Positions 3,229 to 64,000 of a DNA stretch of 64,000 nt are shown piece by piece. Under the pieces are notes generated by a model, which was not told where the DNA came from, made no database searches, and worked only from the letters and a program-made list of their open reading frames with translations. Position numbers and translations under genes: made by a program. Numbering within the stretch: the stretch's first letter is position 1; every line of letters starts with the position of its first letter. The stretch is from a virus (lineage: Duplodnaviria; Caudoviricetes): the IMG/VR virus record IMGVR_UViG_3300031555_004891. One strand, given 5' to 3'.

Positions 3229-4395
3229 ATGACTAAGCTTGAAAAATTAGCATTAGAAATTGATTAGGATTTATTCTCAGATCTTTATTTGAAACAAAAT
3301 AAATCACAGAAGGATTTAGCGCAATATTTTAATGTAACAGTAAGAGATATTGAAGACTTATGTTTTTATTTCCACGCTATTAAGTTAAAGAAAAATTCAA
3401 AATTAGCGAATATTTTAAATAACTTAGATGCTGAAGCATTTATATCTGATAGACAGGTGTTAACATCAGCTGAACTAATAGTAAAATATGACTTAAAAAC
3501 ACATTATTAGTTATAGCGACTTGTTTTATGGACACATTGTTCTCTAACTGTTGAGCAGAAAAATCAAATAACAACACGAAAAATTCGGGAACAAACTGCA
3601 GATAAGAAATTATAGAATGTCTAGAAGTGTAATCAATCAAAAATAGAGCATTATGGATCTCTAGAAGAATGTAACAAACAATCTGTGATTAAAGTTCGAA
3701 AAACAAAACTGGATAGGTACAATGATCCTAAATATAATAATAGAGAAAAATCGAAGCAGACATGTTTTATTAAATATGGCGGACCCTCAAGCATGAATTC
3801 AGCAGAGGTTGTTTAGAAGGGTATGTAGACTAGAGAAAAACATGCTGGATCAATAGCTGCATCATATTCAGCAGGAAAGCTAAAGTAGCAAAAAACACTT
3901 AAAGAAAGATATGATGTAGATTATTTTGTACTACATCCAAAATGTAGATCTAAAATATAGCACACTAAGAATAGTAAACCAAATAAACGGTTCGCTAAAA
4001 TTTTAATAGAAAATAACATTGAGTTTGATCAAGAGTTTTTCCTTGAAAATAAATTTTATGATTTTAAAGTAAAAAATTATTTAATAGAAATAAATCCAGC
4101 GCCTACACATAATAGTTCTATTAATGTATTTGGATCTGATTAGCCTTTAGATAAGTACTATCATAGAAATAAATCTATGTTAGCTTTTAAGAATAATTAT
4201 ATTTGTATTCATGTTTGGGATTGGACAGATATAAATAGCGTATTAAGATTATTATGTACAGATATTTCATTAGATAAAATAATTTTCACAGAACCTTCTG
4301 TATATTATTATAATATAACAAAAAAGAAACTAACAGATATGTCAGATCCCAATGCTGTATAGATTTGGGATGATGGATTAAAAATAATGGAGTAA
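3229..4395 (+). CDS. free-standing putative homing endonuclease, 388 aa with 11 in-frame TAG
   Basis: GGAGG + ATG 3229, no TAA/TGA until 4393; KQTCFIKYG-type repeats then YDFKVKNYLIEINP..THNS..YHRNKS (Vsr/PD-(D/E)xK-like) C-terminus. Confidence 0.75.
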
Positions 4396-55235: not shown

Positions 55236-55326
55236 TGCCCCTTAGGTTAATGGTAAACCGCCGGTCTCTAAAACCGTTATACTCTCTGAAAGGGTAATCT
55301 GGGTTCGAATCCCAGAGGGGTAGCCA
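55236..55326 (+). tRNA. amber-decoding tRNA (CUA) with long variable arm
   Basis: TGCCCCT/AGGGGTA acceptor, G73, CCA; loop CT-CTA-AA (55268-70); 6-bp extra arm; CTGGG-TTCGAAT-CCCAG T arm. Confidence 0.9.
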
Positions 55327-55330
55327 ATAC

Positions 55331-55408
55331 TGGGGATTAGCATAACGGCTATTGTGCGGCGGACTCTAAATCCGTTTTGAGCTGGGTCGGCACCAGCATC
55401 CCCCGCCA
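55331..55408 (+). tRNA. amber-decoding tRNA (CUA), Gln-like acceptor stem
   Basis: TGGGGAT/ATCCCCC (U1.C72, G2-C71, G3-C70), G73, CCA; GCGGA-CTCTAAA-TCCGT; atypical T loop GTCGGCA. Confidence 0.88.
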
Positions 55409-56654: not shown

Positions 56655-59015
56655 ATGGCTGGAAATAATGTAATACAGATACTCAGGGGTACTAGAGATG
56701 AGATCGCTTCTAACAAAAATAAAGATGTGATGCTCAACGAAGGTTAGCTTCTTTATAATCTTACAGATAATTATCTTACCTGTGGTGGTGAAAATGGTAG
56801 TAAGTTAACTAGCCTACCAGTAACTACTAGAAGTATGTCAGGTCATTATGATGATTAGATAATGGGAATATTGCCATCTAATTGCCTTGATGGATCTGTT
56901 GATAAATACAGAGTGGGCCCAGTAGTAACACCAACTAGAGTAGAGTATGATGAGAATGGCGATCCTATAAAAACTTATTATGACTCAAAATTTGAAATAG
57001 ATTCTGCTTTAGGATCAAAAATTATCTTAGGCTCAGATTTTATTAAGTTATCTTTAAGTGATGGTAAACATGTAACACTAAATTCTTCAGGTTTTTCATC
57101 ATCAAGTGGATCATCTGCTAGCTCAGTAAACGCAACAGATTTATCAGCATCTTCTGCAAATATTGGTGGAGCACTTACTTCGAGAAGCATAAGTGTTGGT
57201 GGAACTAAGACTTATTTATCCGCTAACGGTAATGCTGTAACTTTAAGAAATGCTAAAAAGATTCTATTAGATGGTGAAAATGGTACTATAGAGCAAAAAG
57301 CAAGCAGCATAACTCAAGAAGCCATAGTATTAGATTCTAAAGTTGCTGTTATTAATTTCAATTCGCAAGTAGAGATTGGAACTACTGCTGCTAGATTAAA
57401 TCTAAAATTCGCTAAACCAACTAATATAGATGGGAATATTAATTTTACTGGAAAAGTAACATCATCTTACACACCTAGAGATGAGAATGATGTAGTAAGA
57501 CTTAAAGATTTAGGTGTTAATATAGATTAGTTGCAAGATTCTATCGATGGAATTGTTATTCCAGATAAATCTTCTTCATCTGCAGTAAGTGATTCTGTAG
57601 TTGTAACTGAGTCAGATTTAGATGATCAATATTCTGTTATTATAAGTACTGCTGGTGAAAAATCAGCTTTATCAGCTACACCTAAAAATTTAGTATCTAT
57701 AAATCCTAAAAATGGTAGAATGACTGCTGGTAGATATACTGTGAGCACAGCAGATCAGCAAGTTGAAAGAGATAATGCACACGGTATAAATTTAAATAAC
57801 TCTGATGCAATAAACGCTCATGCTATACACTTTAATAACACTGGAAATTATGGTTTAACATTCTCTAGTAAGAATGATCGCTTTTATGTAGATAGAGGCA
57901 CTGCTTTTATCTAGACTAAAAATGATAAAAATGAAACTATAACTAAAACACTTCTTACTCAAGAAGGTGGTGATATAACAACCCTTAATATATAGAATGA
58001 TTTTACCGTTGGCGGTAAATTGACTGTTAATGGAAGCTTTCAACCAAATAAACTAGTTATAGCTGGTGCTAATTAGCATGTGCGTGATGGTGCTAAATCT
58101 TATGGTTTCTATGCAAATAATTCTGATATTGATGGTGTATATAATATAAGGTTTGAGACACATGCAGATAACCCAGATCAAGGTATCTTATTCTAGAATC
58201 GTGATTTTGATAATCAATATTATAGATTAGCAGCTGAGACATCAAATACAGGACCTAAGTTATATTTAAGTACTGTAAAGTATGATGAAAGTGGTAAAAA
58301 AGTTATTGGTGTTGGAACTAATGATTCTCATGTAAAATACGAAGTTATAACATCTAAAGGTGGATAGACTATAGGTGATGGAACTACCACAAACAATCTT
58401 TAGATGTTTACAGTAAACGGTCACCAAACAGTAACAAAGACCTTAACAGCAAACAAAGCTTCTTTAACAGATTTATCTGTTAGCGGCGGTGCTGTAAGCA
58501 TTAAGAATAAAAGCAATAAAACAGGTGAAATAGTCTTAACAGATGGAAGTGTTACTGCTAAAACTATAACTGCTACTGATACTATAAAATCTAATAAAAA
58601 TATAATAGCCAGCGGTGATATTACAGGTAACGTATTGCAGACTAGTGGTTCTCATAATGTAGTTATCGATGGTAATACAGGTAATATTTCCGGTGCTTAT
58701 CTAGATGGTACAGCAAATTATGCTAAACACTTAGCGCCTGGAGCCGTTAAATTAGGCCTTCTTCCTGAAGGCACCTATACAGGTAACGATCCAAACACTT
58801 TGTATATTTTAGTATGTAAATCTAGCGATGGCAAATCGAATTGCACATTTAAGTCTAAGTATGCTTATGATTATTGCTATATAAGAATATCTTCCGATGA
58901 TGATCACAACAAAGAGGACGCTGGAAGCATGAGTGCTGGAACTGAGTTAAAAATACATAATGATACAAATGATGATTGGATACATACTTGGTTGTATGTA
59001 TACACTAAAAATTAA
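56655..59015 (+). CDS. long Mtd_N-like tail fibre C, 786 aa, 9 TAG
   Basis: VIQILRGT..LNEG(TAG)LLYN..LTCGG; no TAA/TGA until 59013; G/S/T-rich beta repeats. Confidence 0.85.
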
Positions 59016-60392: not shown

Positions 60393-60402
60393 TTTAATTT
60401 AT

Positions 60403-60439
60403 AAAGACTTTAGATTTATTTCTAAAGTCTTTTCTTTTT
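60403..60439 (+). terminator. intrinsic terminator
   Basis: AAAGACTTTAGA...TCTAAAGTCTTT + T tract. Confidence 0.75.
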
Positions 60440-60533
60440 AGTTGATTTATAAATGAAAATATTATATAATTATAATGTAGATAAGAAATCTAATCTCATT
60501 TATACATAACTAAATATAAGTGAGGTATTTATA

Positions 60534-61273
60534 ATGGAACAAATTAACCCTAAGTATGAGATTGGAACAAAAATTATCTACAAACAAAAGAAATATGCTA
60601 TTGCTGATCATGTATATTATAAAAGTAATGATACATGGTACTATTGGTTGAGAGGTGTTATCAAAAAATCTAGACTAGGAATACCCGAATGGATTTATAT
60701 AAATGACGCTAAACAAATTTTAATAAATAGGATTGATTCTGATACTTCTATTAAAATAATTTCAGAAACAGCATAAAATTAGTTGATTTATTAATTAATT
60801 TATTATATAATATAAGTGTAGATTAAAGATGGAGTGATAGTATATGGAAAAGCTTGATCATTTCGAACTTATGTTAGTAAAAGGTTGTGTAGTATCTGAA
60901 ATCAGACAGCTCGAAGAATTAAATGCTGAAATTGATAGCAAAAAATCACCATCAACTATAGATTTAGTTAACTATGCTTATAATAAAGAATATATTGAAA
61001 AATATCAAAAAATTATTCAAAAATTAAGTTAAAAACAGTTGATTAAATAATCAAAATATTATATAATATATAATGTAAATAGAAGTTATAGAGGTCATTG
61101 ATATGGATAAAAAGCAAATGTTAAAAGACGGTTTGAAAAAGAAAACAGTGTATTTACTTGTTGGAAAAGATATCAATGGAAAAGAGCATTTCACAGTAAT
61201 AGAAGATTTAGAAATGGCTAAGCTTTATAAAACTAGTGAAAATGTTCGACCTATAACGATGTTTATGAAATAA
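60534..61273 (+). CDS. three small early ORFs (60534-60776, 60844-61032, 61103-61273), each with its own promoter
   Basis: Promoters at 60442, 60783, 61039 and GAGG/GGAG RBSs. Confidence 0.7.
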
Positions 61274-61279
61274 GCTAAA

Positions 61280-62215
61280 TAAACGGTGCCACGAAGCCAA
61301 AGCGTTCGCGATATAGATGTTATTAAATCTCTCAAAAACGGATCTGGGAAGAAAGCAGCTGTGGTAAATGGAATGAGATAAACAGCCGTTATTAAAACTC
61401 AAATATAATCAATGACGCCTCGGAAAGACGAGCATTAACTGGTTGGGTAGTTAGGTCATCATCTCTCAACTTGAAATGACCAGATTTGTTTATATTTGAG
61501 TAACAATTTAATTGAACACTGTAGTTTAACAGCAGCAAGTCGTAAACACCTCATCTAGAAAGGGGAGAAGTGGTTTCGGTAGATGGTAAGTGCAATTCAC
61601 CACTAGTTAGTTCAATTAACAATAAAAACCTAGGTATTCAAAACGTAGAGTAAAATCCGCGTGGAGGAAGGTCAGACATTTCTAATTCAAGTGCACAAAG
61701 GATTAGAAGTGAGTTGTTGTCAGGACATTTAGTTATTAGTCCTATCCGTATGAGACAATGAGGTTATCCCCGAAGGATAACTGACGGTGAAAAAGTTGAG
61801 TAGACCTTTAATCGAAAGATGAAATAACTGCTTATATATAATATTGTACTGAAGTTCACAAATCGATTCTCAGCAAAATGTGTATCTGAAAGATGGTAAA
61901 TTGTGATAGTACACTACTTCGGCGAGTACAATATTTTGGTGCGGAATAAAGAGTTGATTTACATGTCCGCGAAAGTCAACCACCTTTAGAAATTAGTCGT
62001 GTAAGGCATTATACGGCGCGTAGTAATTATTGATGTGGTAGGTCCGTTGAAAGATTACGGCACCCATCAAGCGGGGCGTGTATGAATGATATAGTCGCTA
62101 AGCCCCGCGGCGACATAATTAATGTAACGGTCAATAAATACTAATTGTTAACCGTGGTTAGTTGCAGAGAGGATAGATGCTCAGTGGAATAGTTGTGAAA
62201 TATCAATTCTACCTC
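61280..62215 (+). ncRNA. large structured non-coding RNA region (GOLLD/ROOL-class candidate); boundaries approximate
   Basis: No credible ORF, raised GC, many stems (61508-17/61610-19, 61841-50/61925-34), pseudoknot 62071-77/62102-08, directly upstream of tRNAs. Confidence 0.6.
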
Positions 62216-62334
62216 TTCAGAGTTTAATTAAGGACTGACGTTACTTTTGGAAACGACACAAAGGCGTACAGACTAAACCAACGAGAAGGGTTTATCCGTA
62301 ACTGGACAACACGTTAGAAATTGTCCGTATATAC

Positions 62335-62410
62335 TCCAGGGTGTTAGCAATGGTAGCTGGCGAGGTTCATACCCTCGAGGTTGTGAGTTCGAGTCTCACC
62401 CCTGGGCCCA
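62335..62410 (+). tRNA. tRNA with CAU anticodon (Met or Ile2)
   Basis: TCCAGGG/CCCTGGG, CGAGG-TTCATAC-CCTCG, GTGAG-TTCGAGT-CTCAC, CCA; unusual C73. Confidence 0.88.
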
Positions 62411-62413
62411 AAT

Positions 62414-62491
62414 CACTTACTCGACTAACTGGTAAGTCGTCCGCTTGAGCGCTGCGGAGGTTAGAGGGTTCAAGTCCCCTGTAAGTGGCCA
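62414..62491 (+). tRNA. tRNA-like gene with 9-nt anticodon loop
   Basis: CACTTAC/GTAAGTG, D arm GACT/AGTC, TCCGC-TTGAGCGCT-GCGGA, TTCAAGT loop, CCA. Confidence 0.7.
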
Positions 62492-62660
62492 TTTAAGGTA
62501 AGGCCTTCTCTAACAGGTAGACTTTAAATTAGTTAGAGTCAAGCGTTTCTCGATATCGTATAAAGAATCGAGCTTTAATTTGTTATCTTAATACGCTTGT
62601 TGGTTCGTATTTATTTAACTTAATCTATGTATTGTTTAACTGGATAATACATAGATACAT

Positions 62661-62743
62661 GGGTAGCATGGCGAAATCTAGAAGACGCGAGGGTCGCTCC
62701 CTTACCGAAAGGTGTGTAGGTGCAAGTCCTGCTGTGCCCACCA
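62661..62743 (+). tRNA. class II (Leu-like) tRNA-like gene with 5-nt anticodon loop
   Basis: GCG/CGC D stem, AGGG-TCGCT-CCCT, ACC-GAAA-GGT arm, GTAGG-TGCAAGT-CCTGC, ACCA. Confidence 0.6.
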
Positions 62744-62808
62744 TCAGATTTATAATCTGAAACCTCTTTTTATTTACACATTAATGGTAGTATTTTCTAC
62801 CATTATAT

Positions 62809-62878
62809 CTATGGATAGTCTAGCGGATAAGACGCTGGTTAAGAGCCAGTATCGCAGGTTCGAATCCTGCTCTATAGC
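62809..62878 (+). tRNA. short tRNA-like gene, AAG anticodon, no encoded CCA
   Basis: CTATGGA/TCTATAG, GTCT/AGAC, CTGG-TTAAGAG-CCAG, GCAGG-TTCGAAT-CCTGC. Confidence 0.65.
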
Positions 62879-63129
62879 ACGCTTATAACAGGTTGTAAAG
62901 GCCTAACAACTTTAGAGGTAAGATGGCTGATTGAAAAAGATCAGCATACGTATCCTGAGTGCCCTTCGATTCGGTTCGACTCCAAACATTCGCATCGGAA
63001 TAGCGAGAGGGTAGGTCACGAGAGTCGTAAGATAGTTCGAGTCTATCCCTCAAGTTTATCTTTTTACAATTACTAAATATGTGCTAAAATTATTGTATAA
63101 TATATTATATGATATAAGGAAACATATTT

Positions 63130-64000
63130 ATGAGTGAGAAAAAAGATTAGAAATTATTGAAAAAATATCTTCTTAAAAATGTTGAAAATGGATATGTACC
63201 ATCACCGGAAGATACTAGAGACTACACAATTAAAAATGTTGCTTTAGAAGAAACAGATGAAATACCTGAAACTTACATAAAGAAGGGTATGAAAGTACTT
63301 AGTCAAGGTAATGTTGGAAGTTGCGTTGCTCATGCTTGTGCCACTGCTATGGGGTATGGTGAGTTAGCTGGTGGTTTTGAAACTGCTCATGATTTCAGTA
63401 GAGGTTATATCTATGGTAATAGAGGTCCTGCTGATTCGCAAAGTGAAGGTATGTATATACGTCAAGCATTAAAACAGTTAAATAAATGTGGTGATGTTGA
63501 GTATATAGATTTTCCGCTAAATGCTAAATATCCAGTAGTTAAAGCAGAAATAGAGAAGAATAAAGATGCTTTAGCTGAAAAAGCAGCTCAATTTAAAATA
63601 GTAAATTACTTTAGATGCTATAGTGATGAGGAAGTTAAGAAGACTCTTCTAGCTCAAGGTGCCGTAGTTATAGGTATTCCTGTATATAGCTCATTTAAAG
63701 CGGAATGTCCATTACCTGATGCTGATGATAAACGCACTGGTGGTCACGCTATGGTTGTTGTTGGTTGGGATGAAACAGGCTGGATTATACAAAATAGTTG
63801 GTCTAGCAGTTGGGGTAAGCAAGGATTTATGCATTTACCATACGATTATCCTATTGATGAGTTATGGGGAATAACAGTCAATAAAAATGTTCCACAACCT
63901 GAACAAAAATCAGCTACAGATAGAATTGTTGCTTTCCTCGCTTTCTATATTAAGTATCTATTAAGAGAAATTAAAAGATTTTTTTTACAAAAAATAAGTA
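63130..64000 (+). CDS. papain-like (C1A) cysteine peptidase, TAG at codon 7, runs off window
   Basis: QGNVGSCVAHA, GGHAMVVVGW, IQNSW..WG. Confidence 0.9.

Follow-up and report, generated by a model that had tools for sequence, protein, structure and literature searches.

A probable tandem array of RNA modules in front of a phage tRNA cluster, with one member of the widespread R1 RNA family

The gene-free stretch at positions 61277-62334 of a 64,000-nucleotide (nt) viral DNA (IMG/VR record IMGVR_UViG_3300031555_004891, Caudoviricetes; the whole DNA analysed is called the window below) lies in front of a cluster of transfer RNA (tRNA) genes. It is probably a tandem array of RNA modules, designated A, B, C and E, which makes up the non-coding leading section of a phage tRNA operon. 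Module A belongs to an RNA family, here named R1. The parts are separable, because in the mosaic relative L260 two further copies of A take the place of B, with A, C and E retained. Unit E carries local helices which substitutions tend to spare on the + strand and not on the - strand. An initial annotation had described an ornate RNA of about 1 kb beside the tRNA genes, resembling GOLLD or ROOL; its view of a non-coding, structured region was upheld, with the structure on the + strand of a tRNA operon, but not that of a single giant RNA. The features of the locus are as follows.

61039-61067, + strand: predicted sigma-70-like promoter, TTGATT-17-TATAAT, where the transcription unit probably begins
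61103-61273, + strand: small open reading frame (ORF) of 56 amino acids (product 61103-61270), without a family match
61277-61395, + strand: module A, one R1 copy (88.1 bits with the R1 model)
61397-61501, + strand: module B, a predicted stem-closed RNA with a widespread hairpin motif (arms 61397-412/61486-501)
61508-61619, + strand: module C, a predicted stem-closed RNA with a 10-bp clamp (61508-17/61610-19) and a homolog in L260
61620-61715, + strand: variable spacer with a local hairpin (61677-86/61702-11), poorly kept in L260
61716-62330, + strand: unit E, a candidate structured RNA of about 615 nt with about 19 local helices
61716-61759, + strand: helices H0 (61716-21/61754-59) and Ha (61722-26/61739-43), the 5' hairpin domain of E
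62071-62114, + strand: 7-bp GC hairpin (62071-77/62102-08), to which a pseudoknot helix (62094-98/62110-14) may be added
62335-62410, + strand: tRNA-Met (CAU), the first of the cluster, 83% identical to the tRNA-Met of L129

Layout and modularity of the stretch

Under translation table 11, no + strand ORF of at least 40 amino acids lies wholly inside 61277-62334; the longest comprises 31 amino acids, and the absence of ORFs noted in the initial annotation was thus confirmed. With TAG read as glutamine, the sole + strand frame of 85 amino acids requires six TAG read-throughs. The content of guanine plus cytosine (GC) is indeed elevated, being 0.386 in the stretch as compared with 0.236 in the small-ORF region just upstream (60400-61276) and 0.434 in the tRNA cluster.

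The hairpins listed earlier exist, with coordinates off by 1-2 nt in places. They are GGTTATCC/GGATAACT at 61762-69/61775-82, CTCG-GAAAGA-CGAG at 61419-61432 and GTCGTGTAA-GGCA-TTATACGGC at 61996-62017. Long-range complementary arms were also recovered, of 10 nt (61508-17/61610-19), 11 nt (61840-50/61925-35) and 16 nt (61397-412/61486-501). The proposed 7-bp pseudoknot pairs as described (GCGGGGC at 62071-77 with GCCCCGC at 62102-08), but this is an ordinary hairpin stem; a pseudoknot would arise at 62071-62114 only if the loop GTCGC (62094-98) also paired with GCGAC (62110-14). The motif GCTAAAT is present at 61274 but only weakly enriched (37 copies versus 23 expected in the window). It was rejected as a promoter motif, as it reads GATAAAT in L260 and is barely enriched.

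An exact look-up of the 56-amino-acid ORF product returned six loci: in four of them the region is the same as in the window, one (L262) shows three clustered differences, and one is L260. The collection has the identical protein in 34 of its blocks; 23 contigs were read, and contigs of 0.2-1 Mb carry this ORF. L260 shares the promoter, the ORF and module A at 94% identity, with the promoter region itself at 94%, and the two changes in the ORF are both synonymous, giving a synonymous divergence (dS) of about 5%. The order in L260 is A, a weak A-like copy, another A, the C homolog, a divergent spacer and E, without B; three R1-type units (86, 31 and 74 bits) stand head to tail at L260:3175-3530, where the window has A and B. 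After E, L260 continues with an unrelated tRNA-Met and then a different downstream region. Two further relatives, L133 and L135, match the window from 61789 onward at 98-99%.

Module A and the R1 RNA family

R1 was first seen in a comparison of the window with G001, a complete 233-kb IMG/VR phage which is a distant relative (topoisomerase subunit A 69% identical). Two shared strings bracket a variable body, and the conserved strands of the family read GGUGCYACGAAGCC and UAAAUGGARUNNGAURAACAGCC. A degenerate 23-nt pattern derived from the 3' string was present in more than 117 IMG/VR stretches among the matches listed, and these came nearly all from contigs of 50-410 kb. Among GTDB genomes, the motif was found in 33 stretches, mainly in gut and rumen Clostridia bins.

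The architecture comprises a clamp helix (P1), a second covarying helix (P2) and a large conserved internal loop. P1 is flanked by GGUGC and AACAGCC and is present in the window copy; P2 consists of CYAC/GURG, and both this helix and the conserved 3' strand UAAAUGGARUNNGAURAACAG are found in module A. There, P1 is formed by 61282-87/61385-90 and P2 by 61289-92/61361-64. The R1 model gave a single, full-length match in the window (61277-61395, 88.1 bits, E about 1e-20). The element of about 110 nt closed by AACGG/CCGTT, for which a distinct RNA had been suggested, is therefore real and separate, and corresponds to module A.

In a MAFFT alignment of 56 R1 copies, P1 shows AU, UA, GC and CG pairs at three positions. 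Double changes that preserve pairing occupy 104 cells versus 33 expected, a value reached by none of 500 shuffles. When the model was run over 100 sources, 130 matches were obtained, 90 of them distinct; in this wider set 93% of the cells pair (77% in shuffles), and 168 double-change cells were counted versus 55 expected, again with 0 of 500 shuffles reaching the observed value. The matches to the model total more than 160 across IMG/VR contigs and gut Clostridia genome bins. On this evidence, R1 is a widespread phage RNA family without an Rfam entry, and module A is a solid member of it.

R1 copies occur within the tRNA arrays of large gut phages, always on the strand of the tRNAs. A tRNA on the same strand was found within about 1 kb for 103 of 133 copies and within 30 nt downstream for 25 of them; none of the 133 has an opposite-strand tRNA within 1 kb. 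The nearest tRNA of the window copy is 940 nt downstream, farther than for most copies. Arrays of two to four units also occur in L217, L144 and L282. In the 3' loop (GGAR...GAUR; window positions 61373 and 61380), two purines are identical in 114 of 119 distinct motif contexts (G..G in 93, A..A in 21), with A..G found once; the window copy is the A..A variant. This suggests a non-Watson-Crick (homopurine) contact or joint recognition of both positions.

No R1 copy tested matches any Rfam family, and no description of R1 was found, the literature not having been searched for the R1 sequence. Resemblances to hammerhead and signal recognition particle RNAs, noted by eye in L260 and R1, were dropped; the core positions are unconserved and Rfam gave no match. 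G001 has its own 1.3-kb ORF-free, GC-raised stretch inside an array of 26 tRNAs (L010:3600-4900), which holds one R1 copy (3962-4122) and T-arm-like pieces not called by ARAGORN. An R1-bearing contig also contains a c-di-GMP-I-GGC-like element below threshold (46 bits, L137:1214-1291).

The R1 strand YACGAAG agrees with the Y-RNA motif GNCGAA(N)G at six of seven positions, the first G of the motif not being kept. This motif lies near the 5' end of Y RNAs, and YrlA, YrlB and Yrn1 are bound by Ro60/Rsr (Chen et al. 2014, PMC4201824). R1 resembles Y RNAs in its length of about 100-150 nt and its position among tRNAs; its ACGAAG comes close to the Y-RNA motif, and a DUF2828 gene is at times nearby, Y RNAs being expected within about 4 kb of a Ro60/TROVE gene on the same strand. 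In contrast to Y RNAs, it lacks the first G of the motif and a visible tRNA-like domain, and the YrlA model (RF02553) matched neither the window copy nor typical R1 copies.

A gene for a Ro60-like DUF2828 protein was present in 11 of 50 R1-bearing phage records and in one of the five checked first (12 of 55 together), including 7 of 31 records that are at least 90% complete. The distance to R1 was about 1-9 kb in 10 of the 11 records for which it was worked out. G004 has two R1 copies flanked by ACAGCAA motifs at 1.4 kb upstream of its DUF2828 gene, R1 thus forming a second RNA class in such an array; R1 itself ends in AACAGCC, with ACAGC before the 3' clamp strand, and has no ACAGCAA word. 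A TROVE gene was absent from five R1-bearing phage records, and neither a TROVE nor a DUF2828 gene was among the window ORFs scanned. In most R1-bearing phages, the complete relative G001 among them, neither a TROVE nor a DUF2828 gene was detectable, and we therefore only infer a Y-RNA-like role of R1. It would then be a small RNA that binds protein as Y RNAs do, possibly the Rsr of the host.

Modules B and C and unit E

The hairpin of module B is GACGCCUCGGAAAGACGAG, with the motif at 61414-61432. The string GACRCCUCGGAAAGACGAG(G) recurs unaltered in more than 117 IMG/VR stretches among the matches listed, from diverse, GC-rich and AT-rich phages. It stands directly 5' of tRNAs or forms 24-nt tandem repeats in the leader of structural genes; it also occurs within larger conserved RNAs, where it is often followed by a CUAACACGCAUGAGGAUUGG-like string. 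In G001 it is identical and lies directly 5' of two tRNAs. Its loop presumably resembles boxB-type GNRA-like loops. The hairpin has no Rfam family, and a literature search for its sequence returned no paper. Module B has a folding z-score of -3.2, on boundaries that were chosen from the repeats. One contig fetched via the hairpin motif carries a skipping-rope RNA above threshold (46 bits, L088:773-842).

The homolog of module C at L260:3543-3633 has a conserved 5' part, and its interior varies in sequence and length. The 10-bp clamp pairs in L260 through an A-U to G-C double change. An interrupted form of the ACAGCAA word, ACAGCAGCAA, follows the 5' side of this clamp at a distance of 11 nt; neither module C nor R1 was counted among the RNAs with that word. 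The spacer 61620-61715 diverges from L260.

Unit E ends 4 nt before tRNA-Met in both the window and the L260 lineages. It is 91% identical to L260:3746-4361, with differing flanks. It contains no ORF, and relatives differ by indels of 1 nt and of 5 nt, both frameshifting, as expected for non-coding DNA. Constraint on its structure was assessed by counting the pairs broken in the minimum free energy (MFE) fold relative to the same base changes placed randomly. Between the window and L133, 14 substitutions break a single + strand pair versus 7.6 expected (P=0.0002); after removal of a cluster of four substitutions, one pair is broken versus 4.8 expected (P=0.01). The energy test gave P=0.005. 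The - strand fold showed no protection (7 broken versus 3.7 expected). Between the window and L260, 49 substitutions break 11 pairs versus 17.9 expected (P=0.008), again without protection of the - strand.

A curated set of 118 pairs in 19 local helices was then compared among the relatives. Four pairs with double changes still pair, three in H0 and one in Ha, and 13 one-sided changes into or out of G-U keep pairing; six cells are unpaired. In the control, with the partner slid by 1-3 columns, 0-1 double changes were counted. The conserved 12-nt loop of Ha is unchanged in L260 while both stems beneath it covary. The helix 62274-79/62289-94 is re-registered in L260 via several coordinated changes. 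The helices 62071-77/62102-08 and 62094-98/62110-14 are invariant in the window, L133 and L260, the differences being confined to loop and linker. A word of the UUAGWWAUU type occurs three times in E (61728-61741, 61984-61998 and 62313-62326), twice in hairpin loops; its first copy is the 12-nt loop of Ha.

Divergence from L260 is 18-27% at both ends of E and 2-10% in its centre. The diverged ends look like the result of exchange with a more distant homolog, and the compensatory changes are located in them. Long-range helices from MFE and RNAalifold folds (e.g. 61950-63 with 62194-210) are not claimed; they are invariant everywhere and expected by chance in AT-rich sequence. Because long-range contacts are neither supported nor refuted, E may be one RNA of 615 nt or several small ones. 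Taken together, the substitution patterns support E as a set of local + strand helices under selection, and moderately support it as a candidate large RNA confined to one lineage.

Homologs of E were sought in several ways. A blastn search against INPHARED phages returned no homolog of the stretch. nhmmer searches with a single sequence and with a three-sequence profile against 2.1-2.4 Mb of phage loci returned only near-identical copies and one borderline match of 50 nt. Exact 20-mers of the invariant core of E were found neither in IMG/VR nor in JGI metagenomes, and a covariance model of its covarying 5' domain (R2) gave nothing below E=0.3 in 1.5 Mb.

Alternative explanations, setting and significance

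Rfam 15 was used for comparison with known RNA classes. At the gathering score only tRNAs were reported; at E<=10, nothing relevant was found on 60900-63150 and no match at all on 61396-62340 (945 nt). As a positive control, the same search detected ROOL at L128:13756-14320 with 219 bits (gathering score of RF03087, 99.1 bits). Group I and group II introns, RNase P RNA, transfer-messenger RNA (tmRNA) and riboswitches were rejected, with no Rfam match at E<=10. Neither ARAGORN nor the Rfam tRNA model, even at E<=10, found a tRNA or tRNA remnant inside 61277-62334. Because the search is silent here and detects ROOL in L128, none of these classes (GOLLD, ROOL, introns, RNase P RNA, tmRNA, tRNA remnants) accounts for the stretch.

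A single GOLLD/ROOL-type RNA of about 1 kb, as read initially, would account for the size, the tRNA-adjacent position in a phage and the many hairpins, and the relative L128 does have a true ROOL directly 5' of a tRNA. It is nevertheless largely refuted and very improbable, given the silent Rfam search with its positive control, the assignment of the first 115 nt to an independent family which elsewhere occurs alone or in arrays, and the exchange of B for more R1 copies in L260 with the rest kept. E shares with ROOL (RF03087) and GOLLD (RF01998) a comparable length (about 615 nt; about 580 nt for ROOL and about 800 nt for GOLLD), phage encoding, the position directly 5' of a tRNA and a richness in local helices with GNRA and UUCG loops. 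Unlike them, it has no covariance-model match at E<=10 and no demonstrable conserved pseudoknotted core, and it occurs in a single narrow lineage. Only these last 615 nt or so are left as a candidate large RNA, and what they have in common with GOLLD and ROOL comes down to size and a place immediately 5' of a tRNA. GOLLD and ROOL are described as multimeric cages in a cryo-electron microscopy report (10.1101/2024.12.08.627333).

Several results weigh against the tandem-array reading. The folding z-scores of 61396-62334 are weak and do not discriminate between the + strand (-1.8) and the - strand (-2.0). Among the 40 substitutions private to L260, 11 broken pairs versus 13.3 expected are not significant (P=0.23). 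Since the window itself was the source of the curated helices, the percentage of paired cells is inflated. The terminal H0 pair breaks uncompensated, the 13-bp stem 62021-33/62131-43 loses two pairs in L260 without compensation, and three clustered substitutions in L262:2901-3546 (window 61740, 61741 and 61746) break two Ha pairs; this last variant may be tolerated, or may reflect an error of sequencing or assembly. Long-range or tertiary contacts in E find no support, E is represented by three distinct sequences only, and the searches above detected no homolog in other lineages. The centre of E diverges near the synonymous rate (2-10% versus a dS of about 5% for L260; 2.9% versus about 3% for L133), and its identity is therefore not evidence of constraint. 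The tRNA cluster, with 0.55% divergence from L133, is the most conserved part of the locus, and E is far less constrained.

These rates would fit an explanation in which the stretch, apart from A and perhaps C, is spacer or consists of decayed genes or tRNAs, the hairpins being incidental or local stability elements. E evolves five times faster than the tRNA cluster and has no homolog beyond its own lineage, nine tRNAs and three other RNAs occupy the interval from the same promoter to tRNA-Met in L129, and 62126-62175 resembles the 3' end of a 205-amino-acid gene of L128 and L129. Decay is nonetheless considered unlikely. Substitutions avoid breaking + strand pairs and not - strand pairs, and this strand-specific sparing argues for a present function; moreover, four compensatory double changes occur in E and one in C, the GC content is raised as in the tRNA cluster, and neither tRNA-like remnants (at E<=10) nor protein remnants were detected. 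A pseudogene origin had been rejected after six-frame translations (stops as X) were compared with syntenic relatives, with nothing below E=0.4. Alternatively, the stretch could be a cis-acting leader of the tRNA operon, its hairpins serving as processing, anti-termination or stability signals for the precursor rather than as independent RNAs with their own functions. The B hairpin directly 5' of tRNAs and in structural-gene leaders of many phages, in some as 24-nt tandem repeats, would suit a leader, as would the end of E 4 nt before tRNA-Met in both lineages. A leader appears quite improbable all the same, as 615 nt of conserved helices far exceeds the needs of known leaders, and R1 copies are self-contained units with clamp helices that occur in arrays.

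The window is part of a large AT-rich gut phage (GC 0.316 over 64,000 nt) whose proteins include topoisomerase II subunits, a Rad50/SbcC-like protein, a RecA-like protein and NrdD. TAG is read as a sense codon: two tRNAs with CUA anticodon are encoded at 55236-55408 (L260 also carries two), and ORFs lengthen under TAG read-through, e.g. 56655-59015 with nine in-frame TAGs. The hexamer pair TTGATT/TATAAT recurs at 60442 and 60783, ahead of neighbouring small ORFs. On the + strand of 61067-63063, neither a further strong (10/12) promoter-like site nor a terminator-like site was found; a weak 9/12 promoter-like site lies at 61903-61932. For the cluster up to 63060, ARAGORN and Rfam call just tRNA-Met (62335-62410) and tRNA-Leu (62809-62878), the latter within the region 62411-63060. 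A third tRNA-like unit at 62662-62740 scores 18 bits. The odd tRNA-like units look selected rather than decaying, because nothing else in the locus is as conserved as this cluster.

Other relatives show further RNA candidates between tRNA genes. At L129:560-1040 and L128:3825-4300, a tRNA-like gene seemingly with a nested second tRNA-like unit is followed by a structured RNA of about 340 nt with apparent compensatory differences between the contigs; Rfam matched only the nested unit (33 bits) and not the 340-nt RNA. Other, unassigned inter-tRNA RNAs of 200-330 nt lie at L129:1114-1442 and 1517-1723, and L129 has three structured RNAs besides its nine tRNAs. The 50 nt at 62126-62175 of the window resemble the end of the 205-amino-acid membrane-protein gene, which sits just before tRNA-Gln in L128 and L129 (73% identity, nhmmer E=0.06), perhaps as a remnant or because a recombination joint is shared. 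Most relatives with a downstream peptidase C1 gene of about 60% identity have no tRNA array there. The ROOL of L128 is 25 nt upstream of tRNA-Thr and about 5 kb downstream of the peptidase C1 gene. Because the window ends inside its peptidase C1 gene, the phage might carry a ROOL just beyond 64000.

For the tandem array, which is the favoured reading, we infer the transcription, the processing and the function of every module. Rightward transcription would probably start from the promoter-like site at 61039-61067 and pass through the 56-amino-acid ORF. The modules would fold separately in tandem and not as one RNA, and the precursor would be cut by tRNA-processing enzymes. RNase P, by cutting at the 5' end of tRNA-Met, would fix the 3' boundary of E, with the clamp helices delimiting the remaining units, and the pieces would accumulate as stable RNAs during infection. 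A more far-reaching version is put forward only tentatively, as it is possible rather than probable. In it, E would be a single stable RNA of about 615 nt and of a new class, a counterpart of ROOL and GOLLD in a TAG-recoded lineage and matured with the tRNA; A would stand for a new and widespread family of Y-RNA-like RNAs that in large gut phages work together with a Ro60-like protein, which may be the phage's own (DUF2828) or that of the host.

Phage tRNA arrays are emerging as reservoirs of non-tRNA RNAs, of which GOLLD and ROOL are the best known. Species 1 and 2 of phage T4 (rnaC/rnaD) are stable small RNAs which are co-transcribed with the tRNA cluster and released by tRNA-processing enzymes. 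In the array of the window, too, structured RNAs other than tRNAs would lie within a phage tRNA operon; this array is much longer, and no sequence relation is expected. The locus adds R1, a well-supported small-RNA family without an Rfam entry, and a candidate large RNA in the position which ROOL occupies in a relative. A link of R1 to Ro60-like proteins, if true, would extend Y-RNA biology to many phages. For the annotation of such regions, it matters that what looks like one giant RNA can prove to be a series of exchangeable RNA cassettes.

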